From Candidatus Pacearchaeota archaeon (lineage in GTDB: Archaea; Nanobdellota; Nanobdellia; Pacearchaeales; GW2011-AR1): a stretch of DNA of 64,000 nt. The stretch is from positions 11,057 to 75,056 of the forward strand of contig JBAZCR010000001.1 in assembly GCA_041654895.1 (NCBI GenBank), read 5' to 3'. Shown here one piece after another: positions 6,471 through 24,759 of this stretch. How positions within the stretch are numbered: the stretch's first letter is position 1; each line of letters begins with the position of its first letter. The position numbers and the translations under genes were made by a program. The notes below the pieces were generated by a model. It was not told where the DNA came from. It ran no database searches and saw only the letters and a list, made by a program, of their open reading frames with translations.

Positions 6471-9128
6471 ATGAAGAAAGAGGAGATTGTTGGTTTATCT
6501 AGTGCAGAATCTAAAAAAAGATTAGAAGAACACGGGTTTAATGAAATTAAAGATGTAAATAAAATATCTTCTTTTAAAATATTAATTAGACAAGTAAAAA
6601 GTAATTTCATTATTTATCTTTTGTTAGTTGCTATGATTTTATCTTTTCTTGTAAGTAAAAATATTACAGCCTACGTTTTACTTTTTGTTATACTAATATT
6701 AGTTACAACAGGATTTATTCAGGAATATAAGGCAGAAAAGTCAGTCCAAGCTCTTAAAAAAATGATTACTTCTACATGTCTTGTATTAAGAGATGGAAAA
6801 GAAAAAGAAATATATGTAAAAGAGCTTGTTCCAGGAGATATTTTAATTTTGAGAAATGGAGAAAAAATTCCTGCAGATTGTTTAATATTATATAAAAAGG
6901 AATTGTTAGTTAATGAATCTGTTTTAACCGGAGAAGCACATGAAATAAAAAAGGAGATAGCTATAGATCCTCAAAAATATGAAGATAAAAATGTGTTATT
7001 TATGGGTTCTTTTATTGTCCGTGGAAAAGCAATAGCAAAAGTAATTCATACTGGAATGAATACTAAATTTGGAAAGATTGCTAAATTAATATCCAAGAGT
7101 GAAAAAGAATTACTTTTACAAAAAAAAGTAAATAATATTGCAAAGTACATGGCCACCATAGGTCTATTTTTTTCAATTTTAACTGGACTAATAATTTTAT
7201 TTAGAGCTCCAGAGTTGAATAACCAAGTAATTGTTGAAGCATTAATTCTTGTTATTGCTGTTGCAGTATCATCATTTCCTGAAGGGTTTCCTGTTGTTTT
7301 AATTACAGCATTAGCCACAGGCTCATATAGGATGGCAAAGAAAAATGCCATTGTAAATAGAATGTCAATTATTGAAACATTAGGAGAAACGACAGTTATT
7401 TGTTCAGATAAAACTGGAACAATTACAAAAGGGGAAATGACAGTTACAAACATTTATTCTGATAATAAAGAATATACACTTTCTGGAACTGGTTATAATG
7501 ACAAAGGGAATTTTTATTTAGATAATAAGCCCGTAACTCTAGATAAAGAAAAATCCTTACAATTGTTATTAAAAGCAGGAATATATTGTAATGATGCGCA
7601 TATATATAGGAGTGGTCAAGAAGAGGGTGATTTTGATATAAATGGAACTCCAACAGAGGCTTCATTATTAATTGCAGCTTCAAAGGCAAAATTGTTTTAT
7701 GAGGATTTGTATTTTGATAGAAAAGAAGAGAATCCATTTTCATCTGAAAGAAAAATGATGTCTGTTTTAATTAAAGAAAAAAAAGAGAACTTTATTTACG
7801 CAAAAGGGGCCTTAGAAGTTTTATTAGATAAGTGCTCTTTTATTCAGAGAAATTCTGGAGTATATAGGCTTCTTGAAAAAGATAAAAAGAAAATATTAGA
7901 AGAAAATAAAAGATTTGGGAGTGAGTCATTAAGAACTTTAGCCTTTGCATATAAAATAACAAAAAATAATTTTAATAAAAAAATAGATTTTGAAAAGGAT
8001 TTAATCTTTTTAGGATTTGTAGGTATTAGAGACCCACCAAGAGAAGAGGTTAAAGAGTCTGTTAGGATGTGTAAAAAAGCAGGAATCAAAGTAAAGATGA
8101 TTACAGGAGATAGTAAAGAAACAGCTTATTCAATTGCAAAACAAATTGGTTTAGATAAAGGAAAAATTTTAGAAGGATTTGATATTGATAAATTAACTGA
8201 TGATGAACTAACAAGAATTGTTAATAAGACCGTTATTTTCGCGAGAGTAAGACCAGAACACAAATTAAGGATTGTAAAAGCACTAAAGGAGAATGGTGAA
8301 ATTGTTACAATGACAGGAGATGGAGTTAATGATGCTCCTGCACTAAAAGAAGCACATATTGGAGTTGCAATGGGCAAGAGCGGGACTGATGTTTCTCGTT
8401 CTGTTGCAGATTTAATTATTAAGGACGATGATTTCTCCACTATTGTTGATGCTATAAAAGAAGGAAGAACTATATTCAATAATATTAGAAAGTTTGTAAC
8501 ATATCAATTATCAGCTAATATAGCAGAATTAATAATTATTGTCATAGGCGCCTTATTAGTTCCTATTTTCGGTTGGCCAATCCCATTATTATTAGCATTG
8601 CAAATATTATTTATGAATATTGTAACTGATAATCTTCCTGCAATAACTTTAGGTTTAAACAAATCTTCTCAAGATATTATGGATGATAAACCAAGAGTAA
8701 AAGCACAGATTTTAAATAAGAATTTTGTACTAATTTTAATTTTCTCAGGAATATTTATGGCTTTGTTAGTCTTAATTACATTTTACTTTACATATAATAT
8801 CTTAGGTCAAACTATTGAAAGTGCAAGAACAACATCTTTAATTGCGCTAATATTTTTAGAAATTGCCGGTGCTTTTAATTTTAGAAGCTTCAGAAAAGGA
8901 ACAATTGGAAGATCTCTATTAACTAACCCTTCTTTAGCAATAGCTTCTTTTGTTTCAATTCTTGCAACAGTTTTGATAATTTATACTCCATTAAACATTA
9001 TATTTGAAACAGTTCATATACCTCTAATTGATTGGATTTTTGCTACAGGTCTTGGAATATTTTATATTATTGTATTTGATATTTTTAAAAAAATAAATGT
9101 AAAGAATCAAATACTAGATTTCAATTAA
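6471..9128 (+). CDS. Cation-transporting P-type ATPase (P2-type, Ca2+/Na+-K+ ATPase-like)
   Basis: CSDKTGTITKGEM phosphorylation motif, MITGDSKETA, TGDGVNDAPALK, TGE actuator motif, and 8-10 TM helices. Confidence 0.85.
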   Translation: MKKEEIVGLSSAESKKRLEEHGFNEIKDVNKISSFKILIRQVKSNFIIYLLLVAMILSFLVSKNITAYVLLFVILILVTTGFIQEYKAEKSVQALKKMITSTCLVLRDGKEKEIYVKELVPGDILILRNGEKIPADCLILYKKELLVNESVLTGEAHEIKKEIAIDPQKYEDKNVLFMGSFIVRGKAIAKVIHTGMNTKFGKIAKLISKSEKELLLQKKVNNIAKYMATIGLFFSILTGLIILFRAPELNNQVIVEALILVIAVAVSSFPEGFPVVLITALATGSYRMAKKNAIVNRMSIIETLGETTVICSDKTGTITKGEMTVTNIYSDNKEYTLSGTGYNDKGNFYLDNKPVTLDKEKSLQLLLKAGIYCNDAHIYRSGQEEGDFDINGTPTEASLLIAASKAKLFYEDLYFDRKEENPFSSERKMMSVLIKEKKENFIYAKGALEVLLDKCSFIQRNSGVYRLLEKDKKKILEENKRFGSESLRTLAFAYKITKNNFNKKIDFEKDLIFLGFVGIRDPPREEVKESVRMCKKAGIKVKMITGDSKETAYSIAKQIGLDKGKILEGFDIDKLTDDELTRIVNKTVIFARVRPEHKLRIVKALKENGEIVTMTGDGVNDAPALKEAHIGVAMGKSGTDVSRSVADLIIKDDDFSTIVDAIKEGRTIFNNIRKFVTYQLSANIAELIIIVIGALLVPIFGWPIPLLLALQILFMNIVTDNLPAITLGLNKSSQDIMDDKPRVKAQILNKNFVLILIFSGIFMALLVLITFYFTYNILGQTIESARTTSLIALIFLEIAGAFNFRSFRKGTIGRSLLTNPSLAIASFVSILATVLIIYTPLNIIFETVHIPLIDWIFATGLGIFYIIVFDIFKKINVKNQILDFN

Positions 9129-9682
9129 GGATATCTCTCAACAAAATTTTTATTGTTACGAGGTTTTAGAATTTTATTTAGCTTTCTCTGAGTAGCATAA
9201 AAAATCTCTGGATTAACTAAAGGAGTATGATTAGAAGGATACAATTGATTATTAAATTTTATTTCGCCTAGATAGGTCCTATTTTTTAAAATTTTTTTTA
9301 GACCATTTAATGAAATCCCGAAATCTTTAGAGAGCTTATTTAAAGAAATGTTTGAATTTAAAAATGTTTTAAAAATTAAAATAACTTTTGTTGAGTCTTC
9401 ATTTAATGTAAGAGCATTATTATGGATAGTATAACCAAAAGGAGCTCTTGTAACAGGATAACCCTGCTTTGCCTTAGCTTGCATTCCGGATAACTGTTTT
9501 TTTCCTGGTGTCGAATTATAAATCCTAAAAGTATCTAACATCTTCCAATCTATTTTTTCATTAATGTATTTTTCAAAATCCTTCTTGTTTTCTGGAGAAA
9601 ATGTCGAACAAATATTACATAGTGGCTGGTTAAATTTTAGGATATATCTTTTTTCATGATAACCACATTTTATGCATTTCAT
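9125..9682 (-). CDS. Zn-ribbon plus large-serine-recombinase 'Recombinase' domain protein that lacks the resolvase catalytic domain
   Basis: CIKCGYHE...CNIC ribbon, then GYPVTRAPFGYT...VILIFKTFL..ISLNKLSKDFGISLNGLKKILKNRTYLGEI...HTPLVNPEIFYATQ. This matches the pPyGY / vrrIf / iL.N..Y.GE / HePii..e.F..vQ blocks of the PF07508-type domain. Start trimmed to the internal ATG at 9680-9682, because the track's longer start overlaps the upstream gene. Confidence 0.5.
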   Translation of the reverse strand: MKCIKCGYHEKRYILKFNQPLCNICSTFSPENKKDFEKYINEKIDWKMLDTFRIYNSTPGKKQLSGMQAKAKQGYPVTRAPFGYTIHNNALTLNEDSTKVILIFKTFLNSNISLNKLSKDFGISLNGLKKILKNRTYLGEIKFNNQLYPSNHTPLVNPEIFYATQRKLNKILKPRNNKNFVERYP

Positions 9683-9704
9683 AACTAAATAAAAGGAGGG
9701 GTAT

Positions 9705-10220
9705 TTATAAAATAAGGGGACAATAATGCTTATCTTGAGAAATACTCTCAAGAGTTTTTTTTCTAAAAACATAATGTGCAAGGCCATCTGCCAAATAAAC
9801 CAAATAATTATTTTGGTCTAAATAATCTTGTGAAATAATTTCTAATTGAGATTCTTCTAAATTAAACTTATCAAAAAACATGTTAGAAATAGAATCTATC
9901 TCTTTGTCTTCCTTTAAACCATCGATATATAAGGTTAACTTAGTTACATCACTAAAATCAAAAGGATAAAATAAACTATAGACTATTTGTGGGAGTAATT
10001 TGCCTGAAGGTATTTCAGATTTTAATTTTTCATGTAATAATAGATAAGAATAATCTCTTCTATAAACTTTTTTTAGAAAAGAAGAATAATTTTTTCTGTT
10101 TTTCTCAAAATGGTTTTTTTGTGTGTCCTTTTCTTTATTTGATAATATTAATGCAAAAACTTCTGGGAATCGTCCATGATTTGACTCATCTATTCCTGCA
10201 TAAAGGTTTTTCTTTTTCAT
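9705..10220 (-). CDS. DUF3800-like protein (predicted RNase H-like fold)
   Basis: N-terminal YAGIDESNHG (y.DESG motif) and C-terminal YLVYLADGLAHYV (QxADl.ag-like), characteristic of DUF3800. Start overlaps the xerA stop. Confidence 0.45.
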   Translation of the reverse strand: MKKKNLYAGIDESNHGRFPEVFALILSNKEKDTQKNHFEKNRKNYSSFLKKVYRRDYSYLLLHEKLKSEIPSGKLLPQIVYSLFYPFDFSDVTKLTLYIDGLKEDKEIDSISNMFFDKFNLEESQLEIISQDYLDQNNYLVYLADGLAHYVFRKKTLESISQDKHYCPLIL

Positions 10221-11053
10221 TACAGATTCAGAGAATCTATTGGGCTTTTTATCTTTTTCAGTTCCTGAGTTGATATATGGGTGTATATTTGAGTTGTTGA
10301 TAAATTTGAATGACCTAATAATTCTTGGATTTTCCTTATATCTACATTATTCTCTAATAAATGGGTTGCGAAAGAATGTCTAAGTGTATGACAATGAACT
10401 CTTTTGTTTATATTTGCTTTTCTTGCAGCAGTTGTAACAATTTTTTGAATATTCCTTGTTGTCAACTTTTGTTTTGGACCTGAAAATAGGTAGATATTAT
10501 TATACTTTTTTTGTTTTTCCACTTGTTCCTTTAAATCCTCCATTAAAAAAAGAGGCAAATTAAAAATTCTATCTTTATTTCCTTTTGATTGTTTTATACG
10601 TCCTACTCTTTCATTAAAATCTAAATCATCTAGCCTTAAATTAACCAACTCTGAAACTCTTAAGCCACATGCGTACATTAAAGATATGATCAATTTTGAC
10701 TTTTCGTTGTTTGTTGAATTTATTAGGAATTTTATTTCATCTTTTGTTAAGACCGTAGGCAATATTTTATTTTTCTTAGGCCTTTTAACGCCCAAAGTTG
10801 GATCTTGATTTAATAAATTTGAATAAGCATATCTTATTGCAGCTAGAAAAAGAATTATTGAGCTTGAAGATTTATCTGAATATTTTTCTGCTAAAAAAAA
10901 CTTTATGTCTTCTGTATTTATCTGATTTGGGTTCTTTTCTAAGAAATCTATTAATTCGCTATTAGCTCTTAAATAATTTCGAATAGTATAATTTGAATTT
11001 TTTGTTATTTTTAATTCTATTTCTAATTTTTTTAAAAAATCTTCTTTATTCAT
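10220..11053 (-). CDS. xerA: Tyrosine recombinase XerA (XerC/D family)
   Basis: C-terminal catalytic box HTLRHSFATHLLENNVDIRKIQELLGHSNLSTTQIYTH, with R..K..H..R..H/W..Y residues. 277 aa, as for archaeal XerA. Confidence 0.8.
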   Translation of the reverse strand: MNKEDFLKKLEIELKITKNSNYTIRNYLRANSELIDFLEKNPNQINTEDIKFFLAEKYSDKSSSSIILFLAAIRYAYSNLLNQDPTLGVKRPKKNKILPTVLTKDEIKFLINSTNNEKSKLIISLMYACGLRVSELVNLRLDDLDFNERVGRIKQSKGNKDRIFNLPLFLMEDLKEQVEKQKKYNNIYLFSGPKQKLTTRNIQKIVTTAARKANINKRVHCHTLRHSFATHLLENNVDIRKIQELLGHSNLSTTQIYTHISTQELKKIKSPIDSLNL

Positions 11054-11216
11054 AATTTCACCTATTTTACTTCATAGATTGTACGAACAAGTATTTATAT
11101 TTTTGTTTTAACATTAAAAGATATTTGTTTTTGAAAAAAAAGGTTTTTCGGTTTAACGAATAATTAAATCGAAGTATTTTAAATTTAAATTAAACTTGAA
11201 TAAAAATTTTTTGTCG

Positions 11217-11244
11217 AGGATATAAAGAAAGATTTTATATATCT
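11217..11244. promoter_or_regulatory. Candidate dif-like Xer recombination site
   Basis: 28-bp AGGATATAAAG-AAAGAT-TTTATATATCT with inverted ATATAAA arms, about 165 bp upstream of xerA. The GGATATAA...TTATAT..CTAA arrangement resembles, from memory, the Pyrococcus dif. Unverified. Confidence 0.25.
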
Positions 11245-11453
11245 AAAAGTTAAAAAGACTCACTTTTTCTAAAATAAATTATGAAAAAAAAGAAATAAAT
11301 TAAGTTTTGCTTATTTTTTAACTCTCACTTTCTAAACTATTTTTTAAGCCTTTTTTAAGGTTGTACGAACTAATTAAACAGAAGTTTTAGAGATTTTTGG
11401 AAAAGCTAAAATAGAAAAGGAAATATCTTTTTTAAGTAAAAACACTAATCAGC

Positions 11454-11924
11454 TTAAATAAGCTCCTTAGAGATACTTTTTTCATAAAAGGGTGTTTTAT
11501 ACCCTAATTCTTGTAATCTTTGATATAATTCAAATCTAAAACGAGAATTATTGATCATTCTATGGTGATTTGGGCATAAGCCGACTAAATTTCCAAAAGA
11601 GTTATTTTTTTTATTTTTGTCTAGATGATAAATATCAACAATTTTATCAAATCCACAAATTACGCAAGATTTTGTTATTTTTCTGAAAGTCTTTAAATCA
11701 ATATTATTTGACTTTCTTTGTTGATAGGCTCTTAGTTTTTCACTTTGGTAAACATAGTTATAACAGGAGGCACATAAACCTTTTGCATGAATGGCTTTTT
11801 TCTGTTTGCATCTTCCACAAATTTTAAATTTTGGCGACCAATTTAGTTTTTTATAACAAGAATAACAAAGACCTTTCGCATGGTGCTCCTTTTCTTCATG
11901 ACAATTAATACATTTTTTAATCAT
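11454..11924 (-). CDS. HNH endonuclease with N-terminal Cys4 zinc fingers
   Basis: HNH motif VDIYHLDKNKKNNSFGNLVGLCPNHHRMIN, and two N-terminal CxxC...CxxC pairs. Confidence 0.6.
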   Translation of the reverse strand: MIKKCINCHEEKEHHAKGLCYSCYKKLNWSPKFKICGRCKQKKAIHAKGLCASCYNYVYQSEKLRAYQQRKSNNIDLKTFRKITKSCVICGFDKIVDIYHLDKNKKNNSFGNLVGLCPNHHRMINNSRFRFELYQRLQELGYKTPFYEKSISKELI

Positions 11925-12070
11925 TTTAAAAAAAAGTCGTTCGCATATAAAAATTTATGTTAGAACGGGTAGAATAAGTTCGATTTATACTATTAGAACT
12001 TCATACAAGGTATATTATACGAACCTTGCTAAATTTCTTGTTATTTTATGGATTTTAAAATAGTTTTGAA

Positions 12071-12394
12071 TCATCTAAAAGCTAATTTTGCAAAATTTAC
12101 GAATTCCTCTAAATTTTTTAGTTTTTCTTTTTGTTTGTATATTTCCTCAGTCATTTCCAGTATATTTTGTTTGGCCAAAGAATTTACTTCTTCTTGAGAT
12201 ATGATAGAAAGATTATATTCTGTTCGACAATTAGGGCAATAAAAACCCTTATCAAGAGCATTATAATAAGAGAGAATTCTTGTTTTATCATAAGGACAAA
12301 TTAAATCTGTTATTCTTTCGATAGGATTAAAATTACTTAATGAAATTACTCTTACTTCCTTTGTTTTCCAATCTATAAACGAAAGAGATTCCAT
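12071..12394 (-). CDS. Hypothetical Zn-ribbon protein
   Basis: CPYD...CPNC pair. No family assignable. Confidence 0.3.
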   Translation of the reverse strand: MESLSFIDWKTKEVRVISLSNFNPIERITDLICPYDKTRILSYYNALDKGFYCPNCRTEYNLSIISQEEVNSLAKQNILEMTEEIYKQKEKLKNLEEFVNFAKLAFR

Positions 12395-12629: not shown

Positions 12630-12929
12630 CTATTTATTTTTTCTTCCTAGCTTATGAGAAATAAGATAATTTAATATAAAGCAGATCGAAAATGATAAAA
12701 TAATTAAAATTAGATAAGTCATCCTTATAGAAGAAATCATTCCAAAAAATTTTATAAAGGAATTTGAAAGAAAATAATTTTCTGGATCTAAAGAACATAA
12801 AGACCATGAATAAGTTGGATTCGGAACTTTTGGAGCAAATTTACAAGGGATAAATGGAATAAAAAGGGAAAGGATTAAGAGAAACAAAGAAACTAAAGCA
12901 GAAATTGTTAAATAATTTTTTACTTCCAT
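12630..12929 (-). CDS. Small hypothetical membrane protein
   Basis: Two hydrophobic segments, 99 aa. Confidence 0.25.
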   Translation of the reverse strand: MEVKNYLTISALVSLFLLILSLFIPFIPCKFAPKVPNPTYSWSLCSLDPENYFLSNSFIKFFGMISSIRMTYLILIILSFSICFILNYLISHKLGRKNK

Positions 12930-13024
12930 AATTAGAATATAAGATACTTCTCTTTTTAATACTTTTTATAATAGTCAATAGAAAACAAACAGCCGTTTAA
13001 AACATAAACAAACAGTCAAAAAAG

Positions 13025-13555
13025 CTGTTTGGACAGCAAACAACAAACAAACAGCCAAAAATAAAAAATTAAATAAAAATATTAAAAAAGGATGTTTTAT
13101 CTTTGATGTTTATAAGAAAACAGATAACCATTAAAAAAGAAAGAAGACTAAGAATACTAAAAAAATAGAACTTAGCTGTTTGGACAGCTGTCCAAAAAAT
13201 GGAAAAACTTATAAAGATAAACAATATTATTATAATATGTTTGGTGGTAAAAAGAGAGTAGAAATTCTAAGAAAAGAAGTGATAGAATCCTTTAATAATG
13301 TTAAAAACGATTTGGCGAAAGTGGGTAAATGGATTAAAGTTATAGACGATAAAAACAATTTAAATGAAAAAAACAATAGAGAATTGAAAGAAGAATTAAA
13401 ACAAATAAGAGAAGATTTAGAAGAAGTAAAAGGTAGCATAGAATTCTTTGGACAAGGATTGTCCAAACAGCTGTCCAAACACAAACAAACAAGTATAAAC
13501 AAACAACAAACAGTGTTTCCTGTCCAAACAGCTGTCCAAACAGCTGTCCAAACAG
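13025..13555. repeat. Dispersed and tandem copies of the 12-mer CTGTCCAAACAG / CTGTTTGGACAG
   Basis: Copies at 13025-13036 (rc), 13176-13187 (rc) adjoining 13188-13196, which gives the perfect 18-bp palindrome TTTGGACAGCTGTCCAAA at 13179-13196 spanning the ATG. Further copies at 13460-13481 (x2) and 13520-13555 (x3 tandem, encoding VQTAVQTAVQT). Related AAACAAACAG(C/T)C repeats occur 3 times at 12970-13070. Confidence 0.7.
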
Positions 13556-13848
13556 TTAAAATAGAGAAATTAACAGTTATGGAAAGGGCAATTATTTTTG
13601 CATTATTAAATAGCGAAATAAAATTAAGTTATGAAGATTTGGCAGCAATGTTTGGGAAAAGTAAAAGTACTATAAGAGGCCAAATTAATAATATTAAACA
13701 AAAAAATGTCAATTTAATTGAAGAATACACAGAACCAAATGGAAAAAAGAGACTATTTTTACCAGAAAAAGTCAAAAGCGACATTACAAAAGACATTAAA
13801 GTGAAAATAAAGCGTGAAAAACCTAAAAAGGCGAAAAGTGAGAGTTAA
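13180..13848 (+). CDS. Coiled-coil / low-complexity repeat / C-terminal winged-helix protein (putative DNA-binding)
   Basis: N-terminal heptad-rich segment, central Q/T-rich repeat encoded by the 12-mer repeats, and a C-terminal wHTH-like ERAIIFALLNSEIKLSYEDLAAMFGKSKSTIRGQINNIKQ. Paralogous in architecture to 14021..14728. Confidence 0.4.
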   Translation: MDSCPKNGKTYKDKQYYYNMFGGKKRVEILRKEVIESFNNVKNDLAKVGKWIKVIDDKNNLNEKNNRELKEELKQIREDLEEVKGSIEFFGQGLSKQLSKHKQTSINKQQTVFPVQTAVQTAVQTVKIEKLTVMERAIIFALLNSEIKLSYEDLAAMFGKSKSTIRGQINNIKQKNVNLIEEYTEPNGKKRLFLPEKVKSDITKDIKVKIKREKPKKAKSES

Positions 13849-14020: not shown

Positions 14021-14728
14021 TTATAAATCTCTAAGTTTAATTATTGTTGATAAATTTGTAATCTCTTTAAGGGTTGAAGAGATAGAAAGTATAACTTTTT
14101 TGTTATTTAGCCTTCTTTTTGTTATAGGAATTCCTTTTTTAATCAATTTATTGACATAATCTCTTATAGAAGATTCGCTTAAATTTAATTTATCTGAAAT
14201 TAATTTATAGTTTATATTTTCATATTTTTGATCCTCATATGTATATATCGTTGAAAAGACTAACATTTCCTGGGATGTTAAATTTTTGAATGTCTTTCTT
14301 ATATCCTTTTTAACATCATCTAAAGAAGAAATTATTATATGAGCCTTTTCAAAATTAGATGAAATATTTAAAAAACCACTATTTTCATTTGAATTATTGA
14401 AATTTATGCCTATATTGTCTGTTGGTTTGTCTGTTGGTTTGTTTGTTGGAACCCCTTCATTTCCTGTGGAAAAAATGAAATTTTGAGCTTTTAAGCCATT
14501 TAAGAGGAGATTTTCATTAAGATCTATTGCTGGTTTGTTGGACTTATTATATTCACCTAATAGGTAATGTGTTGGAATTGCCTTTTTTTCTATTGAATCA
14601 ATTTTATTAGAATTTAGGTTTTGATAAGATCTTATAGCGTTTAATTCATTTTTCAATAAATCTAGTTCCTTTTTTAAAAAATTTATTTCTTCTTTGATTT
14701 TAGAAAATGCCTCTTTTAACATATCCAT
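14021..14728 (-). CDS. Coiled-coil / repeat / C-terminal winged-helix protein (paralog of 13180..13848)
   Basis: N-terminal LKEAFSKIKEEINFLKKELDLLKNELNAI coiled coil, KPTDKPTD tandem repeat (DNA GGTTTGTCTGTTGGTTTGTCTGTTGGTTTGTTTGTTGG at about 14418-14455), and the C-terminal wHTH MLVFSTIYTYEDQKYENINYKLISDKLNLSESSIRDYVNKLIKKG. Confidence 0.4.
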   Translation of the reverse strand: MDMLKEAFSKIKEEINFLKKELDLLKNELNAIRSYQNLNSNKIDSIEKKAIPTHYLLGEYNKSNKPAIDLNENLLLNGLKAQNFIFSTGNEGVPTNKPTDKPTDNIGINFNNSNENSGFLNISSNFEKAHIIISSLDDVKKDIRKTFKNLTSQEMLVFSTIYTYEDQKYENINYKLISDKLNLSESSIRDYVNKLIKKGIPITKRRLNNKKVILSISSTLKEITNLSTIIKLRDL

Positions 14729-14783: not shown

Positions 14784-15053
14784 TCATTGCATTTGTTTGT
14801 ATGCTTCATATGTTTTATTTGAAAGTCTCCATCTTAATCTTCTTTCATAAATTTGACCTAAAGAATTTCTATTTATTTTAACAACTAAACCCTTATTATT
14901 TAAGTCAAGAAGTAATTTCTTTATGAATTCTTCATCCCTTGCTAATTCTTTTGCTATATTACTTGTAAATACTTGTTTGGGTGAAATTAAAAACAAATAA
15001 GATAATATTTGTTCTGAAATTTTCTTTTTTTTTGACTCTGATATTCTTGGCAT
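14784..15053 (-). CDS. Small winged-helix transcriptional regulator-like protein
   Basis: 89 aa. ISEQILSYLFLISPKQVFTSNIAKELARDEEFIKKLLLDLNNKGLV is HTH/wing-like. Confidence 0.4.
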   Translation of the reverse strand: MPRISESKKKKISEQILSYLFLISPKQVFTSNIAKELARDEEFIKKLLLDLNNKGLVVKINRNSLGQIYERRLRWRLSNKTYEAYKQMQ

Positions 15054-16085: not shown

Positions 16086-16341
16086 TACAGTCACCCTATA
16101 ATTTCTTATGGAATTTATTTAAATAATTAATTTAAATTAATTATTTTTATATTTTTATTTATAAATATTTATATTATATAATATATATTATATTATGATT
16201 GTTTTCTAATATATACATTTAATATTAAATTATTTGTATTTTTAATTTTTTCAATTTCATGTGGAATAGAAATTAAGGGGTGACTGTATAAAATTTTTCT
16301 TCGATAAATAAAAAATGTTCTTTTTATATTTCCATAAGAAA
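16086..16341. promoter_or_regulatory. Candidate chromosomal replication origin (oriC): ORB-like inverted repeats flanking an AT-rich unwinding element
   Basis: TACAGTCACCC (16086-16096) pairs with GGGTGACTGTA (16277-16287). ATTTCTTATGGAA (16101-16113) pairs with TTCCATAAGAAAT (16329-16341). Both are perfect inverted pairs. They enclose about 160 bp that is over 90% AT (ATATTATATAATATATATTATATTATG...). The region lies directly upstream of orc1/cdc6. The TTCCA-N3-GAAAT dyad resembles the archaeal mini-ORB TTCCA-N3-GGAAA. Confidence 0.6.
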
Positions 16342-16408
16342 TGATGGTAAGGATTCTTATCTTTCAATTATATTAAACTTTATATAGTTTAAATTTATAT
16401 TTTAATTA

Positions 16409-17623
16409 ATGGCTGTTGAATTAAATAATATTTTTGAAAATGCTGTTAAAAATAGTTTATTTAAGAATAAAAGTGTTTTACAAGTAAAATATACTCCTGA
16501 AAGTATTCCTCATAGAGATGAACAGATAAAATCTATTGCAAGTATTTTAGCTTCTTGTTTAAGAAATGAAAGGCCAAGTAATTTATTTGTTTATGGTAAA
16601 ACAGGAACAGGAAAAACATTGAGCATTCAATATGTAATGAGAGAATTAACAAAAAAAGCAAAAGAAGTAGATGTTGAAGTTAGTTTTGAATATATTAATT
16701 GTAAATTGAGAAAAGTTGCAGATACAGAATATAGAATATTAGCTGCTTTAATTAAGCAATTAGGTGGTGATATTCCTGCAACAGGCCTTCCAACAGATAA
16801 AGTATGGAATAAATTTATTGAAATGGTTGATAAAAAGAAACAATTAATAGTTTTTATTTTTGATGAAATTGATCAGGCTATTAAAAAAATGAGTGATACT
16901 TTCTTATATTCTTTAACAAGATTAAATCAAGAATTAAATAATGCTCAAATATCTATTATTGGTATTAGTAATGATGTAACTTTTTTAGAAAATATAGATC
17001 CTAGAGTAAGAAGTAGTTTGGGTGAAGAAGAATTTATATTTCCCCCATATAATGCTATTCAATTGCAAGATATTTTAAATGAAAGGTGTTCTATAGCTTT
17101 TAAGGAAAAAGTAATAAAAGAAGGGGTTATTGCAAAATGTGCAGCTTATGCTGCAAGAGAACATGGCGATGCAAGACGTGCTTTAGATTTATTAAGAATT
17201 GCAGCAGAACTTTGTGAGAGAGAAGGAAAATTAGAAGTAGAGGAAAAATATATTGATTTAGCAAATCAAAAAATTGAAAAGGACAAAATTCTAGATATTG
17301 TAGAGACAATTCCAAAGCAACATCAATTAGTTTTACTATCTATTATAAATCTAAATAAAAAACAAAAAAATAAGAAAATAGAAAAATATTTCACTGGGGA
17401 TGTTTATAATTCCTATCAAGAATTATGCTTTCAAACAAAGACAGAAAGTTTAACTCAAAGAAGAATTAGTGATATATTAGCTGATATTGATATGTTGGGG
17501 ATAATTAATGCAAAAGTGATTAGTAAAGGAAGACATGGAAGAACAAGAGAAATTAAATTAAGTGTTCCAGATAATTTACTTAATAAAATAGAAAATTTAT
17601 TAAGGAATAGCTTAGGATTATAA
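16409..17623 (+). CDS. orc1: Orc1/Cdc6 replication initiator
   Basis: Walker A VYGKTGTGKT, Walker B FIFDEID, sensor motifs, C-terminal winged helix, and the typical N-terminus (...YTPESIPHRDEQI). Confidence 0.9.
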   Translation: MAVELNNIFENAVKNSLFKNKSVLQVKYTPESIPHRDEQIKSIASILASCLRNERPSNLFVYGKTGTGKTLSIQYVMRELTKKAKEVDVEVSFEYINCKLRKVADTEYRILAALIKQLGGDIPATGLPTDKVWNKFIEMVDKKKQLIVFIFDEIDQAIKKMSDTFLYSLTRLNQELNNAQISIIGISNDVTFLENIDPRVRSSLGEEEFIFPPYNAIQLQDILNERCSIAFKEKVIKEGVIAKCAAYAAREHGDARRALDLLRIAAELCEREGKLEVEEKYIDLANQKIEKDKILDIVETIPKQHQLVLLSIINLNKKQKNKKIEKYFTGDVYNSYQELCFQTKTESLTQRRISDILADIDMLGIINAKVISKGRHGRTREIKLSVPDNLLNKIENLLRNSLGL

Positions 17624-17674: not shown

Positions 17675-19270
17675 ATGGTTAATGAGGTATTTAAAAAGTG
17701 TATAAAAAAAGGTTTTTTATTAGATAAAGAAATTTTAAATCTATTTAATGAATTAGGTGAAAAGGAATCCTCTGAAATTATTGATATTATAAGTAGTCTG
17801 AAAATGAATGAGAGAATCATCACAAAAAAAGTTTTAACTAAATTTATTCCAAAAATTAAGGCAAATTTATCTTTTGATTTTGAAAAAATAAATTTTTTCT
17901 TTGATTACTTTGAAGAAGGAAAAGTTATTAATGAATTAAAAAAAGAGAATAGTAATTTCAAGATATTAAGTGCTCCCTTCTTTCCTCAGAGGAAAATATC
18001 TGTTTCTGATTTTGTTAACCATTTTAAAGATAGATTTGAAAGCATAAAAAGTATCTTAGAAACAAAGAATCTGGAAAACTTAACAACTATTAGAAAAATT
18101 AAAGGGAATACAGGTAATTTTAGTTTTATAGGGGCTGTTTTAGATAAAAGAACTACTAAGAATAAAAATATTATGCTTGAAGTAGAAGATTTAACAGGCT
18201 CTATTAGTGTATTAGTTAATTCAAACAAAAAAGAAATATATGATAAAGCAAAAGATATTATATTAGATGATATTATTGGATTTAATATAAGTTCAAGTAG
18301 TAATTTTTTATACTGTAATGATTTAATATATCCTGATTGTATTTTAAATGAAAAAAAAAGAATTAAGGAAGATTCTTGGGCGGTTTTTATTAGTGATTTA
18401 CATTGTGGTTCTAAACTTTTTTTAGAAGAAAATTTTCTTAAATTTATAAAATGGATTAATGGGAAACAAGGAGACGAGGAATATAGAAAAATAGCTGAGA
18501 AGGTAAAATATTTATTCATTACAGGAGATTTAGTTGATGGTGTGAGTCATTATCCAGGACAAGAAAAGGATTTAAAGATTATGACTAGTGTAGGTCAATA
18601 TGCTAAGGTCGAAGAGCTTTTAAAATTGATAAGAAATGATATTCAAATATTTGCTTGTCCGGGAAATCATGATGCTGTTTGGGTTGGAGAACCTCAACCA
18701 ATTATAAGTGAAAGGTGGGCAGAAGGATTACATAAAATATCAAACTTAGAACTAGTAACTAATCCTTGCTTAATTGAAATTGATGGAGGTTTTAAGATTT
18801 TGATGTATCATGGTGCGAGTCTTAATCCTTTTGTTGAAGAACTTCCGGAAATAAGAGCAAAATATGGAAAGCATTCTCCTACAACGATTGTTAAAGAGAT
18901 TTTAAAGAGAAGGCATCTTTCTCCAATGCATGGATTAGTAGATTACATTCCTTGTGATAAAGATTCTTTAGTTATTAATACTATTCCGGATATTGTTTTA
19001 ACTGGAGATTTGCATAGATGTGAGGTTTCTATGCATAATAATATTTTATTGGTTGCTGGCTCTTGTTGGCAAGCACAAACGAATTTTATGGAAAAAGTTG
19101 GTGTTGAAGCAGATCCAAATAAAGCCATATTATTTAATTTAAAAACTAGAGAAATAAAAATAATAGATTTTAGTGAAGAAGATAAAAATGTTCAATGGTT
19201 AAAGAATCCTGAATTATATTGTCCTTATGATTGCAATTTTAATGGGGGGGATGAAAATAAAAGCATTTAA
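17675..19270 (+). CDS. polD1: DNA polymerase II (PolD) small subunit DP1, a calcineurin-like phosphoesterase
   Basis: OB-fold region followed by phosphoesterase motifs (FISDLHCGS, ITGDLVDG, CPGNHD, GDLH). Conserved position next to orc1. Confidence 0.8.
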   Translation: MVNEVFKKCIKKGFLLDKEILNLFNELGEKESSEIIDIISSLKMNERIITKKVLTKFIPKIKANLSFDFEKINFFFDYFEEGKVINELKKENSNFKILSAPFFPQRKISVSDFVNHFKDRFESIKSILETKNLENLTTIRKIKGNTGNFSFIGAVLDKRTTKNKNIMLEVEDLTGSISVLVNSNKKEIYDKAKDIILDDIIGFNISSSSNFLYCNDLIYPDCILNEKKRIKEDSWAVFISDLHCGSKLFLEENFLKFIKWINGKQGDEEYRKIAEKVKYLFITGDLVDGVSHYPGQEKDLKIMTSVGQYAKVEELLKLIRNDIQIFACPGNHDAVWVGEPQPIISERWAEGLHKISNLELVTNPCLIEIDGGFKILMYHGASLNPFVEELPEIRAKYGKHSPTTIVKEILKRRHLSPMHGLVDYIPCDKDSLVINTIPDIVLTGDLHRCEVSMHNNILLVAGSCWQAQTNFMEKVGVEADPNKAILFNLKTREIKIIDFSEEDKNVQWLKNPELYCPYDCNFNGGDENKSI

Positions 19271-21246: not shown

Positions 21247-24200
21247 TTGATGGAGAAAACTTTAGCAAAACCAGGTTATTGGGATGTTGATTCTTACTTT
21301 ATTGATTTAGAAAATAGTGTTAAAAAAGAGTATGAGGTTGCAAATAAGGCGAGGAAAGTTGGAATTGATCCAAAAGATAAAGTTGAAATTCCTCTAGCAA
21401 CAAGTATGGCTGAAAAGTGTGTTGGCTTAATCTCTACGGTTTACCCTCAATTACCGATTCAAGAAATAACTTCTCGTATGTTAGAATTAGAACAAAAATA
21501 TGGCCAATTAGATACGACTGTTAGTTTTATCATTGCAAAAGAAATTGCTGAAGAAAAGTTTTGTAATTTTAAAAATAAACTTGAAGGAATTGATGCAGGA
21601 ATAAGATTGGGGTTTGCATATTTGACTTTAGGTGTTGTTGCCTCTCCTATTGAAGGATATACGGGTTTAGAAATTGGCAAAACAAAAGATGGAAAAGAAT
21701 ATTTCATTGTAAATTTTAGTGGACCAATTAGATCTGCTGGAACAACAGCTACTTGTGTTATTTTAATGTTAATTGATTTTTTAAGAGACTATTTTGGCTA
21801 TGCAAAATATGATCCAGATGAAATTGAGGTTAAAAGGTATGTTACAGAATGTACTGATTATCATGAAAGAATAACAAATTTACAATATTTTCCAACAGAA
21901 GAAGAAATGATTTTTTTAGCAAAAAATTTGCCGATTCAGATTTCTGGGGATCCTACTGAAAGTAAAGAGGTTAGTAATTATAAGGATTTATCGAGGGTTA
22001 ATACTAATTATATTCGAGGAGGAATGTGTCTTACTTTTGCAGAGGGATTAGCACAAAAGGCTGCAAAAGGTCTTAAAAGGTTAAATAGCCCTAAAAAAAA
22101 TGGTTTAAAATGTGATGGTTGGGATTTTTTAAATGAATATTTAGAGATACATTCTAAGAGAGAAAAGGGAGGTGAAGATATTATAGCAACTTATATTAAG
22201 GATTTAGTTGCAGGTCGTCCGGTTTATGGTCATCCTTCAAGAAGTGGCGGATTTAGGTTTAGGTATGGTAGAAGTAGGATTAGTGGTTTTAGTTCTGTAA
22301 GTATTCATCCTGCAACAATGGGTGTTACAAATGGTTTTTTGTCTCATGGGACTCAATTAAAAATAGAAAAACCTACAAAAGGGTGTATTATTACTTCTTG
22401 TGATAGTATTGATGGACCTATTGTAAAATTGAGAAAAGGAAGTGTTAGAAAATTAAATGATTTAAATGAGGCCTTAAAATTATATAAGGATGTTAAAGAA
22501 ATCATTTACTTGGGAGATATTCTTTTTCCACTAGGAGATGTGATGGATAGGAATCATAATTTAATAAAATCAGGATATGTCGAGGAGTGGTGGGATTTAG
22601 AATTAAAGAAAAAGTTAGAAATTACTGGAGAAGTATTAGAATATGATTATAATAATATTAATTTCGAAGAAGCATTAATTATAAGTGAGAAATATTCTAT
22701 GAGTCTTTATCCAAAGTATATTTATTATTGGAATCAAATTGATATAGATTCTTTTTTATGGCTGCTTGATTGGTTAAGAAATGGTATATGGAGAGGAGAT
22801 GAAGACGGAAAACTAGTTTTACCTTGGAGTGAAATGGTAAGAGATAAGTTCTCAAAGGGAAAGAGAGCTTTAGAATTGATTGGGTTGCCTCATGAAGTAG
22901 TTTTTGACAATGTTGTTTTAGATAATATTAATTCTAAAGCATTATTAACTAATTTAGGAATTTTGGTTGAAAAAAAAGAGGGAGAAACAATAAAAGAGAA
23001 GATTAATATTATTTTAGAAAAAAAAGAAGATTTTGTTGAAGATGTTCTTAAAAATATTAATTTTTTGTCTGAATATGAAATTAAAGATAAATCAGGTGAA
23101 TTTATTGGCTCTAGAATGGGTCGTCCTGAAAAAGCTAAATTAAGAAAATTAAAAGGTAGTCCTAATTGTTTATTTCCTGTTTCAGAACAAGGAGGAAGAT
23201 TAAGAAGTGTATTAGAGACAGTTAAGGTCGGTTATATTAAATCAAGCTGGCCATTATATAAATGTGATTGTGGTAATGAAACAATTTATCCTCTTTGTGA
23301 AAAATGTGGAAATAAAACAAAAAGAAATTATTATTGTAGGATTTGTGATAAGGTTAGCGAAATTCCTTGTCAAGAACATGAGAATGTTGTAAGTGCATTA
23401 AACAAAAAAATAGATTCTTCTTATTATTTTGATGATGCATTAAAAAAATTAGGCTATGATAAAGGTCAAATTCCAAATTTAATTAAGGGGGTTAGGGGTT
23501 TAACTAATGAAAATTCTGATTTAGAACATTTGGGAAAAGGAATTTTGAGAGCAAAATATAATTTGTGCGTAAATAAAGATGGTACTATAAGATATGATGG
23601 TACTGAGTTTTGTTTAACACATTTTAAACCTCAAGAAATAGGAACTAGTATTGAGCTCTTAAAAAAATTAGGTTATGAAAAAGATATTTATGGAGATAAT
23701 TTAATTGATGAATCTCAAATTTTAGAATTAAAGCCACATGACGTTGTTTTACCTTCTTGTAAAGATACTCCCGATGAAAAAGCAGATGATGTTTTTATGA
23801 ATATATCTCAATTTATAGATGAAGAATTAGAAAAACTATATGGCTTGGAAAAATATTATAATTTGAAAAAGAGAGAAGATTTAATTGGCCAGTTAATAGT
23901 ATGTATGGCTCCTCATAATTGTGCAGGAGTTATAGGAAGAATAATTGGATTTAGCCAGTTGCAAGGTATTGTAGCAAGCCCTTATATGCATGCTGCTATG
24001 AGGAGAGATTGTGATGGGGATGAAGCTGCTGTTATGATGTTAATGGATGTTTTGATTAATTTTAGTAAGGAATATTTGCCTAGTCATAGGGGTGGGACTC
24101 AAGATGCTCCTTTAGTATTAAATACGAAAATTCAAGCAGGAGAAGTAGACGATCAGATTTTGGATTTTGAAACTTGTAGTTCTTATCCTTTAGAAATGTA

Positions 24201-24759
24201 TGAATTATCTCAAGAGAATGTTCATTCGAGTAATGTTAAAATGGAAAGGGTTAAAGATAGATTAAAGGAAAATATTTGTCCTTTTAGTGGCACTGGTTTT
24301 ACGCATGATTGTAAAGACTTCAATATTGGTATTTTAAATGGAGCATATAAGGTTTTACCTACAATGAAAGATAAAGTTGAAAAGCAAATGGAATTAGTTG
24401 AAAAGATTCGTGCAGTTGATACTGACGATGTTGCTCGTTTAGTTATTGAAAGGCACTTTATTAGGGATATAAGAGGTAATTTAAGAAAATTTTCTCATCA
24501 ACAATTTAGATGTGTTAAATGTAATACTAAATTTAGAAGACCTCCTTTAATTGGGATTTGTACAAAATGTGGTGGAAAGATAATTTTTACAATTAGTGAA
24601 GGTTCAATTAAAAAGTATTTAGAACCTGCATTATCTTTAGCAAAAAATTATAAAATATCTGAATACACTCGAGAAGGTTTGGAATTAACAAAGTTATATA
24701 TTGAGAGTATTTTTGGTAAAGATACTGAAAAACAAGAAGATTTAAAGAAATGGTTTTAA
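21247..24759 (+). CDS. polD2: DNA polymerase II (PolD) large catalytic subunit DP2
   Basis: 1170 aa. Has multiple Cys4 Zn modules (CDCGNETIYPLCEKCGN; CRICDK...C; C-terminal CVKCNTKFRRPPLIGICTKCGG), the DP2 catalytic region (...AMRRDCDGDEAAVMMLMDVLINFS...), and is located near DP1. Confidence 0.85.
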   Translation: MMEKTLAKPGYWDVDSYFIDLENSVKKEYEVANKARKVGIDPKDKVEIPLATSMAEKCVGLISTVYPQLPIQEITSRMLELEQKYGQLDTTVSFIIAKEIAEEKFCNFKNKLEGIDAGIRLGFAYLTLGVVASPIEGYTGLEIGKTKDGKEYFIVNFSGPIRSAGTTATCVILMLIDFLRDYFGYAKYDPDEIEVKRYVTECTDYHERITNLQYFPTEEEMIFLAKNLPIQISGDPTESKEVSNYKDLSRVNTNYIRGGMCLTFAEGLAQKAAKGLKRLNSPKKNGLKCDGWDFLNEYLEIHSKREKGGEDIIATYIKDLVAGRPVYGHPSRSGGFRFRYGRSRISGFSSVSIHPATMGVTNGFLSHGTQLKIEKPTKGCIITSCDSIDGPIVKLRKGSVRKLNDLNEALKLYKDVKEIIYLGDILFPLGDVMDRNHNLIKSGYVEEWWDLELKKKLEITGEVLEYDYNNINFEEALIISEKYSMSLYPKYIYYWNQIDIDSFLWLLDWLRNGIWRGDEDGKLVLPWSEMVRDKFSKGKRALELIGLPHEVVFDNVVLDNINSKALLTNLGILVEKKEGETIKEKINIILEKKEDFVEDVLKNINFLSEYEIKDKSGEFIGSRMGRPEKAKLRKLKGSPNCLFPVSEQGGRLRSVLETVKVGYIKSSWPLYKCDCGNETIYPLCEKCGNKTKRNYYCRICDKVSEIPCQEHENVVSALNKKIDSSYYFDDALKKLGYDKGQIPNLIKGVRGLTNENSDLEHLGKGILRAKYNLCVNKDGTIRYDGTEFCLTHFKPQEIGTSIELLKKLGYEKDIYGDNLIDESQILELKPHDVVLPSCKDTPDEKADDVFMNISQFIDEELEKLYGLEKYYNLKKREDLIGQLIVCMAPHNCAGVIGRIIGFSQLQGIVASPYMHAAMRRDCDGDEAAVMMLMDVLINFSKEYLPSHRGGTQDAPLVLNTKIQAGEVDDQILDFETCSSYPLEMYELSQENVHSSNVKMERVKDRLKENICPFSGTGFTHDCKDFNIGILNGAYKVLPTMKDKVEKQMELVEKIRAVDTDDVARLVIERHFIRDIRGNLRKFSHQQFRCVKCNTKFRRPPLIGICTKCGGKIIFTISEGSIKKYLEPALSLAKNYKISEYTREGLELTKLYIESIFGKDTEKQEDLKKWF

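Follow-up and report, generated by a model that had tools for sequence, protein, structure and literature searches.

Arrays of a short pseudo-palindromic DNA word in and upstream of an origin-proximal winged-helix gene of Nanoarchaeota, with a possible role in autogenous control

Sites for DNA-binding proteins can lie within coding sequence, and in some systems within the gene of the protein by which they are bound. Here, we analyse a possible case of this kind in a Candidatus Pacearchaeota archaeon, on a 64,000-nucleotide stretch of contig JBAZCR010000001.1 (GenBank assembly GCA_041654895.1, positions 11,057 to 75,056 of the forward strand; the whole stretch is called the window, and positions are counted from its first nucleotide). 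Copies of the 12-mer CTGTCCAAACAG are clustered there in and upstream of a gene, in the following gene 1, for a 203-amino-acid (aa) protein with a C-terminal winged helix-turn-helix (wHTH) domain. Among the described systems, the operators lac O2 in lacZ and gal OI in galE lie in coding DNA and cooperate with promoter sites by looping, and in Bacillus subtilis a parS site, which is centromere-like, is located inside spo0J/parB, the gene of its own binder, near oriC. These are single sites with little effect on the encoded protein, in contrast to gene 1, in which at least five sites are read in two frames and set the whole conserved linker. Palindromic sites near oriC in the gene of their (putative) binder are a likeness to ParB/parS in mode and not in family membership; in contrast to ParB/parS, gene 1 has neither the ParB N-terminal domain nor a ParA partner. 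By fold, Lrs14, AbfR and MarR are nearest. Lrs14 is an autorepressor that binds at its own promoter, and the sites of MarR dimers are pseudo-palindromes. The gene 1 product, by contrast, is modelled to dimerise through a separate 75-residue helix and not through the MarR helical bundle, and to our knowledge intragenic site arrays are not known in these families.

Replication systems offer closer parallels in the placement of the sites. The iterons of phage lambda lie in gene O between the parts coding for the DNA-binding and the C-terminal domains, a placement that would follow the same logic of 'sites encoded in the linker' as in gene 1. The origin, ori-lambda, is located inside gene O, and its inverted-repeat iterons are bound by O dimers (PMC5043065). 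Gene 1 likewise carries an inverted-repeat site array inside the coding sequence of its (here putative) binder. It differs in being a chromosomal archaeal gene without a Rep- or O-like domain, in its 10-12 bp sites compared with 19 bp, and in having a second array upstream of its promoter and an Orc1-type oriC 3 kb away; a replication role is putative. In repABC plasmids, oriV lies inside repC, RepC acts in cis and silent mutations there abolish function (PMC3155836). The likeness to gene 1 consists in dual coding, with the coding sequence of a protein containing the cis element on which that protein acts, whereas repC belongs to a bacterial plasmid system and an unrelated family and has an A+T-rich region without iterons.

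A third kind of site, the origin recognition box (ORB), is relevant to the surroundings of gene 1 and to a convergent paralogue-like gene next to it, gene 2. Pyrococcus ORB1 (reverse complement TTCCAGTGGAAATGAAACTCTGGGGGG) has a TTCC...GAAA core and a G-string, and further ORB-type 13-bp repeats have been described at dp1 besides those at oriC (PMC1904270). For Haloarcula, negative control of an origin by a downstream ORB cluster has been proposed (PMC4010727). In contrast to these archaeal ORBs, the gene 1 12-mer is not an ORB, and the embedded ORB is a single box in gene 2, a putative Orc1 target. Gene 1 lacks at least one defining feature of each of the families compared (MarR/Lrs14, iteron replicons, ParB/parS and ORB). 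The finding is best described as cis sites that lie inside the gene of their putative own binder and that are here phylum-wide, read in several frames and seemingly fixing the linker sequence. We found no account of the gene 1 family, of DPANN origin architecture or of intragenic self-sites in archaea in the searchable literature.

Repeated sites in and upstream of gene 1

The gene 1 locus contains the following features (BRE, transcription factor B recognition element):

12983-13056: distal upstream array of three copies of AAACAAACAGYC and one full 12-mer/10-bp site, TGTTTGGACA, at 13025-13036
13057-13173: A+T-rich spacer from the distal array to the proximal palindrome, read from the sequence
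13174-13198: promoter-proximal site AGCTGTTTGGACAGCTGTCCAAAAA, containing the 18-bp palindrome at 13179-13196
13203-13216, + strand: BRE/TATA-like element gaaaaaCTTATAAAg, ~21-34 bp before ATG 13237, containing cTTATAAAg at 13208-13216
13237-13848, + strand: gene 1, 203-aa protein, start and length taken from protein P0001 and homologue alignments
13447-13467, + strand: intragenic inverted repeat TTTGGACAA-gga-TTGTCCAAA, encoding FFGQGLSK
13459-13482, + strand: two 12-mers in frame 0, encoding LSKQ-LSKH (TTG TCC AAA CAG / CTG TCC AAA CAC)
13483-13515, + strand: AAACA-rich stretch (aaacaaacaag...aaacaaacaacaaacag) with half-site-like words, encoding KQTSINKQQT
13520-13555, + strand: three perfect tandem 12-mers in another frame, encoding (P)VQT-AVQT-AVQT
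13561-13761, + strand: coding region of the winged-helix domain, with the recognition helix KSTIRGQINNIKQK as the most invariant part of the protein

In a scan of the window, the exact 12-mer is found at 13025 and 13176 on the - strand and at 13520, 13532 and 13544 on the + strand, and copies with one mismatch are located at 13459 and 13471. These seven matches within at most one mismatch compare with 0.09 expected, and 0 of 100 shuffles reach seven. An eighth copy with two mismatches, CTGTCCAAAAAA at 13188, is the right arm of a perfect 18-bp palindrome, TTTGGACAGCTGTCCAAA (13179-13196), which occurs once in the window. The initial annotation of the sequence had counted at least eight copies of the 12-mer or its reverse complement, and this count is recovered as five exact copies, two with one mismatch and the palindrome arm. 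The copies that it had placed at 13460-13481 correspond to the one-mismatch 12-mers at 13459 and 13471, and the three tandem in-frame copies at 13520-13555, which Tandem Repeats Finder (TRF) reports as a perfect three-copy 12-bp array, do encode (P)VQTAVQTAVQT. A related motif noted three times upstream is likewise present, as AAACAAACAGYC at 12983, 13006 and 13045 (0.03 expected). The repeats are real and lie far above chance. They flank the A+T-rich spacer at 13057-13173, but the whole genome has a G+C content of ~25%.

The 12-mer appears to be one form of a 10-bp pseudo-palindromic, putative protein-binding site, TGTYY/RRACA, with TGTTTAAACA as its ideal form. The core GTCCAAAC occurs eight times in the 64 kb, seven of them at the gene 1 locus, and the degenerate site TGTYYRRACA shows the same distribution (eight in 64 kb, 7/8 at the locus). 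When counted against expectation, as had been proposed, the word is thus not dispersed in the 64 kb. Its absence elsewhere was checked in these 64 kb of the source genome and in ±6 kb windows of other genomes, and the confinement of the motif to the gene 1 locus in both rules out a dispersed repeat family. The sole TGTYYRRACA outside the locus, TGTTTGGACA at 40128-40137, is located inside a 1607-aa open reading frame (ORF; 35827-40650), in line with the 0.87 copies per window expected by chance.

The mechanically called ORF of gene 1 starts at TTG 13180, and ATG 13199 is out of frame with this ORF. The corresponding database protein P0001 (NCBI 'hypothetical protein WC260_00135'; 203 aa, 100% identity, 100% coverage) starts at ATG 13237 (MFGGKK), and all homologues begin at the equivalent Met. 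Judged from these alignments, the real start of gene 1 is ATG 13237. Because the gene starts there, the palindrome, which had initially been placed over the start codon, is located 41-58 bp upstream of it (-58 to -41), directly upstream of the BRE/TATA element. In 130-bp upstream alignments, a conserved archaeal BRE/TATA, 'cgaaaCATTTATAAAg', is found ~24-38 bp before the ATG in nearly all of 76 loci from as many species, and from this spacing we infer a leaderless or near-leaderless gene 1 mRNA.

Selection on the DNA word across species and subfamilies

In 75 other species, 10-mers of the TGTYYRRACA type within ±6 kb are found only in two segments relative to the start of gene 1, from -400 to -1 (139 copies) and from +200 to +400 (221 copies), compared with a rate of ~0.02 per 200 bp per locus elsewhere. 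The intragenic copies are in coding orientation (219) or palindromic (2). Upstream, 23 copies have the orientation of the coding sequence (CDS), 58 are reversed and 58 are palindromes, and TGTTTAAACA is the commonest form (58/141). Since the upstream copies occur in both orientations and most often as a perfect palindrome, they fit a dimeric binder of double-stranded DNA (dsDNA). At least one full upstream site is present in 70 of the 76 loci, distal sites (-290 to -100) in 61/76 and at least two CDS sites in 71/76, while a TGTYYRRACA abutting the BRE/TATA (-75 to -45) is found in 33/76. Half-sites reach 5.7 per 375 bp upstream compared with 0.22 in a control segment. This conservation rules out that the upstream copies are a decayed duplicate of the linker: they are kept in 70/76 species and use TGTTTAAACA, which cannot be encoded in the AVQT frame. 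One clade of the family (L046, L048, L053 and L055-L076) has no promoter-proximal TGTYYRRACA and keeps the distal and intragenic arrays; the same clade has a TCGACGA / CGTCGA element against the BRE, at ~-60 to -40 from the ATG. In ~118 of 120 metagenome contigs among the matches listed, two adjacent sites lie inside a gene 1 homologue. The two exceptions, L173 (~8576-8630, - strand) and L148 (2808-2830), come from unrelated organisms with 42-45% G+C, one of them being a non-coding tandem array of four copies of GGTGTTCAAACA, and both are probably unrelated chance or independent repeats.

The codons of the linker point to selection on the DNA. The peptide VQTxVQTxVQT is found in 72/76 loci, and (L/V)(S/F)K(Q/T) is also conserved family-wide. 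In codon counts from these 72 loci, compared with background codon usage, Val in the VQT repeats is encoded by GTC (51%) or GTT (45%) and never by GTA (0%; background 21-30%), Gln by CAA in 100% (background 70%) and Thr by ACA in 91%, with ACT at 1% against a background of 32-42%. At the variable position x (A, G, P, D, V or L), the third codon base is kept as T (GCT 97%, GGT 93%, CCT 94%). With the exception of Pro, all these differences have p < 1e-18, and the repeat codons are fixed to nnT GTY CAA ACA. Similarly, in x[SF]K[QHT] (72 loci), x varies between Leu, Val and Met, yet its codon is CTG, GTG, TTG or ATG, and the tetrapeptides keep nTG-TCC/TTT-AAA-CAR/ACA, with TCC for Ser in 41/50 cases compared with 8% in the background. 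On a per-codon measure, excess codon bias amounts to 0.92 bits for residues 76-109 and 0.35 bits elsewhere (p = 2e-11), and in columns conserved to at least 90% to 0.69 compared with 0.20 bits. At the position of the intragenic inverted repeat (13447-13467), TTGGACAG or its complement is frequent in the homologues, and the conserved KQ(T) columns of the AAACA-rich stretch also show raised synonymous constraint.

By these counts, the conserved object is T-GTY-CAA-ACA / TG-TCC-AAA-CA / TG-TTT-AAA-(A)CA, that is, the site TGTYYRRACA, and this word is used in two frames, LSKQ and AVQT. In the AVQT frame, TGTTTAAACA would give GTT-TAA, a stop, and therefore GTC/GTT-CAA is used there, whereas the LSKQ-type frame can and does use TTT-AAA (F-K). 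As selection preserves the DNA word, the LSKQ and VQTAVQTAVQT peptides of the linker are largely by-products. The codon of x is usually identical across the repeats within a species (GGT three times, GAC three times or CCT three times) and different between species, and this uniformity within species indicates concerted evolution, by slippage or conversion, under which the number of copies has stayed at three.

Distant homologues, with 22-30% identity, have the same architecture and the same N-terminal MxFWFFxKK but other recognition helices and other linker DNA. In subfamily 2 (L201-L207), with the helix VTxRRHIND, the linker contains the CGTTCA words CGTTCATGAACG, CGTTCGAACG and CGTTCAAT. 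The last has an 8-bp period and is read in all three frames (VQSFNRS), and 6-10 hexamers are found at +225 to +370 in 7/7 loci and almost none elsewhere. The helix STIKNIIY (L208) is accompanied by AGTGACGCGCGTCACT-type palindromes in the linker DNA, and KSIRNLIY (L210) by the palindrome AAAGGACATGTCCTTT and AAGGACA repeats. The L210 near-palindrome TCTCAAAGGACA/TGTCCTTTGTGA consists of abutting 12-nt arms with 92% complementarity, of which the central 18 bp, CAAAGGACATGTCCTTTG, are perfect. An intermediate, P0187, retains both the RGQ helix and the peptide TAVQTAVQ. Each of these subfamilies thus has a palindrome of its own in the linker DNA, as would be expected if protein and site were cognate partners.

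The winged-helix protein and its origin neighbourhood

Gene 1 has more than 1,654 homologues in the databases, of ~200 aa and 50-59% identity, all from Woese-, Pace- and Nanoarchaeota, and a scan of species-representative genomes shows that at least 348 Nanoarchaeota species encode it. Among 1.84 billion cluster representatives, the family is compact, with 61 matches at E ≤ 1e-30 and 403 when the limit is relaxed to E ≤ 1e-3. An AlphaFold2 model from an 87-sequence alignment (mean predicted local distance difference test, pLDDT, 78) consists of one helix (residues 4-78), a segment of low confidence (75-105, pLDDT < 50) and a C-terminal wHTH with pLDDT > 90 (H114-125, H132-139, H143-156, E162-165, E171-174). 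The protein can be divided into an N-terminal hydrophobic-basic peptide, the helix 4-78, a linker (~75-108), the wHTH domain (114-193) and a basic tail, and the low-confidence segment is exactly the site-encoded part. The linker is predicted to be disordered and is yet among the best-conserved stretches, as constraint at the DNA level predicts; the recognition helix is nearly invariant across the homologues. The N-terminal peptide, MFGGKK here (13237-13266, residues 1-10) and MFGLFGHKK, MFWFFGKKK or MGFWFF.. elsewhere, is conserved in all subfamilies and resembles short membrane-targeting sequences.

In Foldseek searches of the PDB, the best structural matches were AbfR2 (6cmv, Lrs14 family), MepR, MarR, ST1889, SmtB and SSV1 F-93, with E-values of 6e-5 to 1e-3 for AbfR2, ST1889, MepR and MarR and a probability of 1.00 for these four and SmtB. 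On this model, the C-terminal domain is an Lrs14/MarR-like winged helix. The winged-helix ending of the protein proposed in the initial annotation is thus borne out by AlphaFold2 and Foldseek. Of its suggested relations to MarR, TrmB and Rep, a fold of the MarR/Lrs14 type is found, whereas no profile of MarR, TrmB or Rep matches. In Pfam, the only match is HTH_DeoR (22.5 bits, cut-off 21, over 40 residues), with none to MarR or TrmB; in NCBIfam, Sta1 reaches 19.4 against a cut-off of 80 and Lrs14 is not matched, and neither database contains a curated family profile that is convincingly matched. A MarR/Lrs14-type dimer interface is not seen in the model, which has the continuous helix 4-78 and a 30-residue disordered linker before the wHTH. 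Searches of Pfam and NCBIfam revealed no Rep-type domain (Rep_3/RepA WH1-WH2, lambda O or RCR Rep) and a sequence search of the PDB coiled coils only. HTH_ParB is matched below threshold (18.9 vs 22.6 bits, E = 0.0017), as is TIGR00180 (18 vs 58 bits), and no ParBc domain is found.

The surroundings of gene 1 in the window are as follows:

9125-9787, - strand: serine-recombinase-like protein (weak similarity), 220 aa
10220-11053, - strand: XerA-like tyrosine recombinase
11454-11924, - strand: Zn-ribbon/HNH-like protein
12630-12929, - strand: divergent gene of a small membrane protein, 99 aa, two transmembrane segments (ORF and tblastn)
14021-14728, - strand: gene 2, convergent and paralogue-like, 235 aa, with coiled coil, repeat linker and wHTH
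14411-14449, - strand: 12-bp tandem repeat ACCAACAGACAA, three copies (the third with one mismatch), after the ORB, encoding PTDK/PTNK
14452-14470, - strand: ORB-like element TCCACAGGAAATGAAGGGG in the gene 2 linker, encoding STGNEGV
14784-15053: 89-aa wHTH protein
16086-16352: canonical oriC upstream of orc1/cdc6, with ORB-like boxes around an A+T-rich TA-repeat unwinding region
16086-16112, - strand: ORB-like box TTCCATAAGAAATTATAGGGTGACTGTA
16263-16288, + strand: ORB-like box GGAATAGAAATTAAGGGGTGACTGTA
16330-16352, + strand: ORB-like box TTCCATAAGAAATGATGGTAAGG
16409-17623: orc1/cdc6, from domain matches
17675-19270: PolD DP1, downstream of orc1/cdc6
21247-24759: PolD DP2, downstream of orc1/cdc6

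Across 80 species-level genomes (loci L001-L080), the order is Xer recombinase (-), Zn-ribbon/HNH (-), small membrane protein (-), gene 1 (+), gene 2, the 89-aa wHTH protein, a PRC-barrel protein and orc1/cdc6, the last located 2.7-5 kb downstream of gene 1. The upstream neighbours in 9125-12394 (recombinases and Zn-ribbon/HNH) are syntenic in 31-49 loci. The small membrane protein, which has no Pfam or NCBIfam match, was found by tblastn in 43/80 loci, always on the - strand and ~300-640 bp upstream of gene 1; in the window, a ~307-bp intergenic region with the upstream array is common to the two divergent genes. By this synteny, gene 1 is a core chromosomal gene of the origin neighbourhood and not part of a plasmid or provirus. 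The arrangement had initially been considered reminiscent of plasmid or viral control rather than of ordinary chromosomal genes, which is contradicted by the conserved order from Xer through oriC and orc1/cdc6 to PolD, by IMG/VR, with 0 motif matches and 0 homologues, and by the lack of a Rep or ParB domain; a mobile element, virus or plasmid is ruled out by the synteny and the IMG/VR result. No ATPase of the ParA/SegA type was identified among the conserved neighbours within ±6 kb, and GC skew was uninformative for placing the origin. The gene 1 motif is absent from the oriC region (16086-16352), and the 12-mer CTGTCCAAACAG does not have the TTCCAnnnGGAAAy core, which excludes it as an ORB or a part of oriC. 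A Xer/dif site, considered with XerA as a conserved neighbour, was rejected as well, as the sites are multicopy with 12-bp spacing and a long CAGCTG-centred palindrome is found in four loci only.

Gene 2 is present on the - strand in 77/80 loci and matches Pfam HTH_36 and HTH_24 above the cut-off. Its common architecture with gene 1 and a shared S-x-I-R-x-x-I-N helix pattern were seen by eye only, and BLASTP between the two proteins gave nothing significant. The DNA of its linker is invariant, TCC-AyA-GGA-AAT-nnn-GGG-GTT-CCA-ACA, also at synonymous sites (TCC 61/61 with a background of 8%, GGA 61/61, GGG 61/61), and the box TCCAyAGGAAATnnnGGGG matches the core and G-string of Pyrococcus ORB1. 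An ORB regular expression matches gene 2 in ~78 loci and otherwise only near orc1, the ORB-type boxes thus being restricted to gene 2 and the region upstream of orc1. The box is retained in the subfamily-2 locus L206 with 42% G+C. It reads as an ORB-type box with a G-string, a putative target of Orc1. The repeats that follow have units of 12 bp or 4 bp and are (GACA)n, GACAGACA or CAGACAAAC in the homologues (L001-L080) and encode DRQT/NQQT; these words are confined to the gene 2 linker, and none were found in promoters. In L206, a single subfamily-2 locus, the gene 2 repeats are replaced by (TCAA)n, paralleling the change of the gene 1 motif. Both convergent genes thus appear to host cis elements in their linkers.

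Candidate function of the site arrays

The sites exist, are local to one gene, are conserved as nucleotides and serve two reading frames, and from one subfamily to another they change together with the recognition helix. We infer that they are most likely recognised by gene 1's own product, with TGTTTAAACA, TGTCCAAACA and the palindrome at 13179-13196 as putative targets, and consider it reasonably probable that they are self-recognised arrays for autogenous control. In this mechanism, the gene 1 product would form a dimer held together by its 75-residue N-terminal helix, with two wHTH domains on flexible linkers that may bind the pseudo-palindromes in two clusters. In the upstream cluster, one site in this clade abuts the BRE/TATA and the others reach toward the divergent membrane-protein gene; the intragenic cluster comprises five full sites and half-sites over ~110 bp and is located ~220-320 bp downstream of the gene start. 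If both clusters, at a distance of ~270-540 bp from each other, were occupied together, the level of the protein could be adjusted by autogenous control, with a contact near the promoter acting jointly with a roadblock inside the gene or with a loop that bridges the clusters. The initial view of operator- or iteron-like sites embedded in the regulator's own coding sequence is in keeping with the conservation of synonymous sites, the use of two frames, the sites in ~70/76 promoter regions and the predicted DNA-binding fold; the two findings that would have spoken against it, a word dispersed through the genome and a protein without such a fold, were not made.

Several observations weigh against autogenous control as the sole explanation. 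The promoter-proximal site is present in only 33/76 loci, all of one clade, and the copy beside the BRE/TATA in only 1/7 loci of subfamily 2, which rules out classical promoter autoregulation as a role common to all. At the level of sequence, the putative binder is identified by co-localisation and by a few helix/motif co-changes; independent co-changes are few, types 3 and 4 are each based on a single locus, L209 (helix STIRDHIT) has no linker repeat at all, and covariation of flanking dinucleotides between CDS and promoter sites was not significant (p = 0.33). In addition, a pure regulator whose only detectable sites lie in its own gene makes little sense, and a further function is probably missing from this description. 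A second role as an origin-proximal landmark, in tethering, segregation or control of initiation, is likely but unproven, because the sites are found only in the protein's own gene, the proximal site is not universal and the module is locked to the origin beside an ORB-bearing paralogue.

Such a role could be taken further. The sites may be primarily a chromosomal landmark or replication-associated cis element, centromere-like or origin-accessory, through which the protein would act on the origin-proximal chromosome, by marking, tethering or organising it, or would join Orc1 in modulating initiation; this extends autogenous control, which would become a side effect, and we consider it possible but on balance unlikely. 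Throughout the phylum, gene 1 is in fixed synteny with oriC, orc1/cdc6 and PolD, its motif is confined to one locus, and the paralogue gene 2 has a nucleotide-invariant ORB-type box in its linker. The conservation of the N-terminal MxFWFFxKK in all subfamilies and of the protein as a whole, at 50-59% identity unusual for DPANN, also fits, and replicators inside initiator genes have precedents in ori-lambda (PMC5043065) and in oriV of repC (PMC3155836). On the other hand, a canonical oriC with inverted ORBs and a DNA unwinding element (DUE) lies 3 kb away and lacks the motif, no ParA, ParB N-terminal domain or Rep domain is present, and orc1 is missing from the ±3 kb around at least one locus of subfamily 2 (L201); the N-terminus is no more than a putative membrane-targeting signal, and GC skew is uninformative. 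Alternatively, the sites could be bound by another factor, such as gene 2, the 89-aa wHTH protein (14784-15053) or Orc1/Cdc6. Within 3.5 kb, genes for three further wHTH-type proteins lie in conserved synteny, and some words recur in both the gene 2 linker repeats and the gene 1 motif, namely CAAACAG/ACAGAC for subfamily 1 and TCAATC for L206 (a single case of subfamily 2). We regard this as improbable, given that the motif type changes with the gene 1 recognition helix in four subfamilies, that the site always lies inside gene 1, even where the neighbourhood differs, and that the motif is unlike the ORB and absent from oriC.

Readings that dispense with a DNA-binding protein fare worse. The word might act in RNA, as an mRNA structure, antisense target or site of an RNA-binding protein: the mRNA segment of the window is predicted to fold more stably than shuffled sequences (z = -3.1) and to form a 9-bp hairpin, UUUGGACAA/UUGUCCAAA, and most upstream copies have the reverse-complement sequence of those in the CDS. 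However, an RNAalifold consensus of 45 species has 0 pairs and zero energy, and Rfam reports nothing at the locus, its matches in the window being three tRNAs at other places. Upstream, the most frequent form is a 10-bp palindrome without a loop, as is typical of dsDNA recognition, and the upstream copies, being located upstream of the BRE/TATA, are probably not transcribed with gene 1, which together leave an RNA element very improbable. There is still less room for a repeat that matters for the protein only, with VQTA and LSKQ as functional or slippage peptides and the likeness in the promoter as a coincidence or decayed duplicate, an explanation to which we give almost no weight. Tandem 12-bp repeats and the homogenised x codons do show ongoing slippage or gene conversion, and disordered linkers often carry repeats. 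Yet ~75 species whose proteins are 50% identical share the same fixed synonymous sites, the nucleotides stay constant while amino acids change, two frames are used to read the word (three in subfamily 2), and upstream arrays are present in 70/76 species in both orientations, including the form that cannot be encoded in the AVQT frame.

With autogenous control by self-recognised arrays as the preferred explanation, the locus would provide a clean natural example of dual coding, in which a short DNA word sets a conserved disordered linker across hundreds of species, and it is a warning against taking the conservation of a linker as a sign of protein function. It would also supply a testable DNA motif and mechanism for a well-conserved, unannotated protein of Woese- and Pacearchaeota, which are not yet culturable alone, and the helix/palindrome pairs of the subfamilies may serve as a ready-made set for studying the evolution of winged-helix specificity. 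Together with the ORB in gene 2, the arrays point to an unexplored architecture around DPANN replication origins. A bolder and rather doubtful proposal is that gene 1 and its paralogue form a hitherto unrecognised, phylum-wide origin-proximal module of Nanoarchaeota, in which each protein binds its own linker-encoded sites and the two arrays and the ORB constitute a landmark. If true, this landmark would tether, segregate or license the origin, possibly with MxFWFFxKK as a membrane anchor, and a self-contained cassette uniting protein and site in one gene would give archaeal cells a counterpart of lambda O/ori or ParB/parS assembled from unrelated components.

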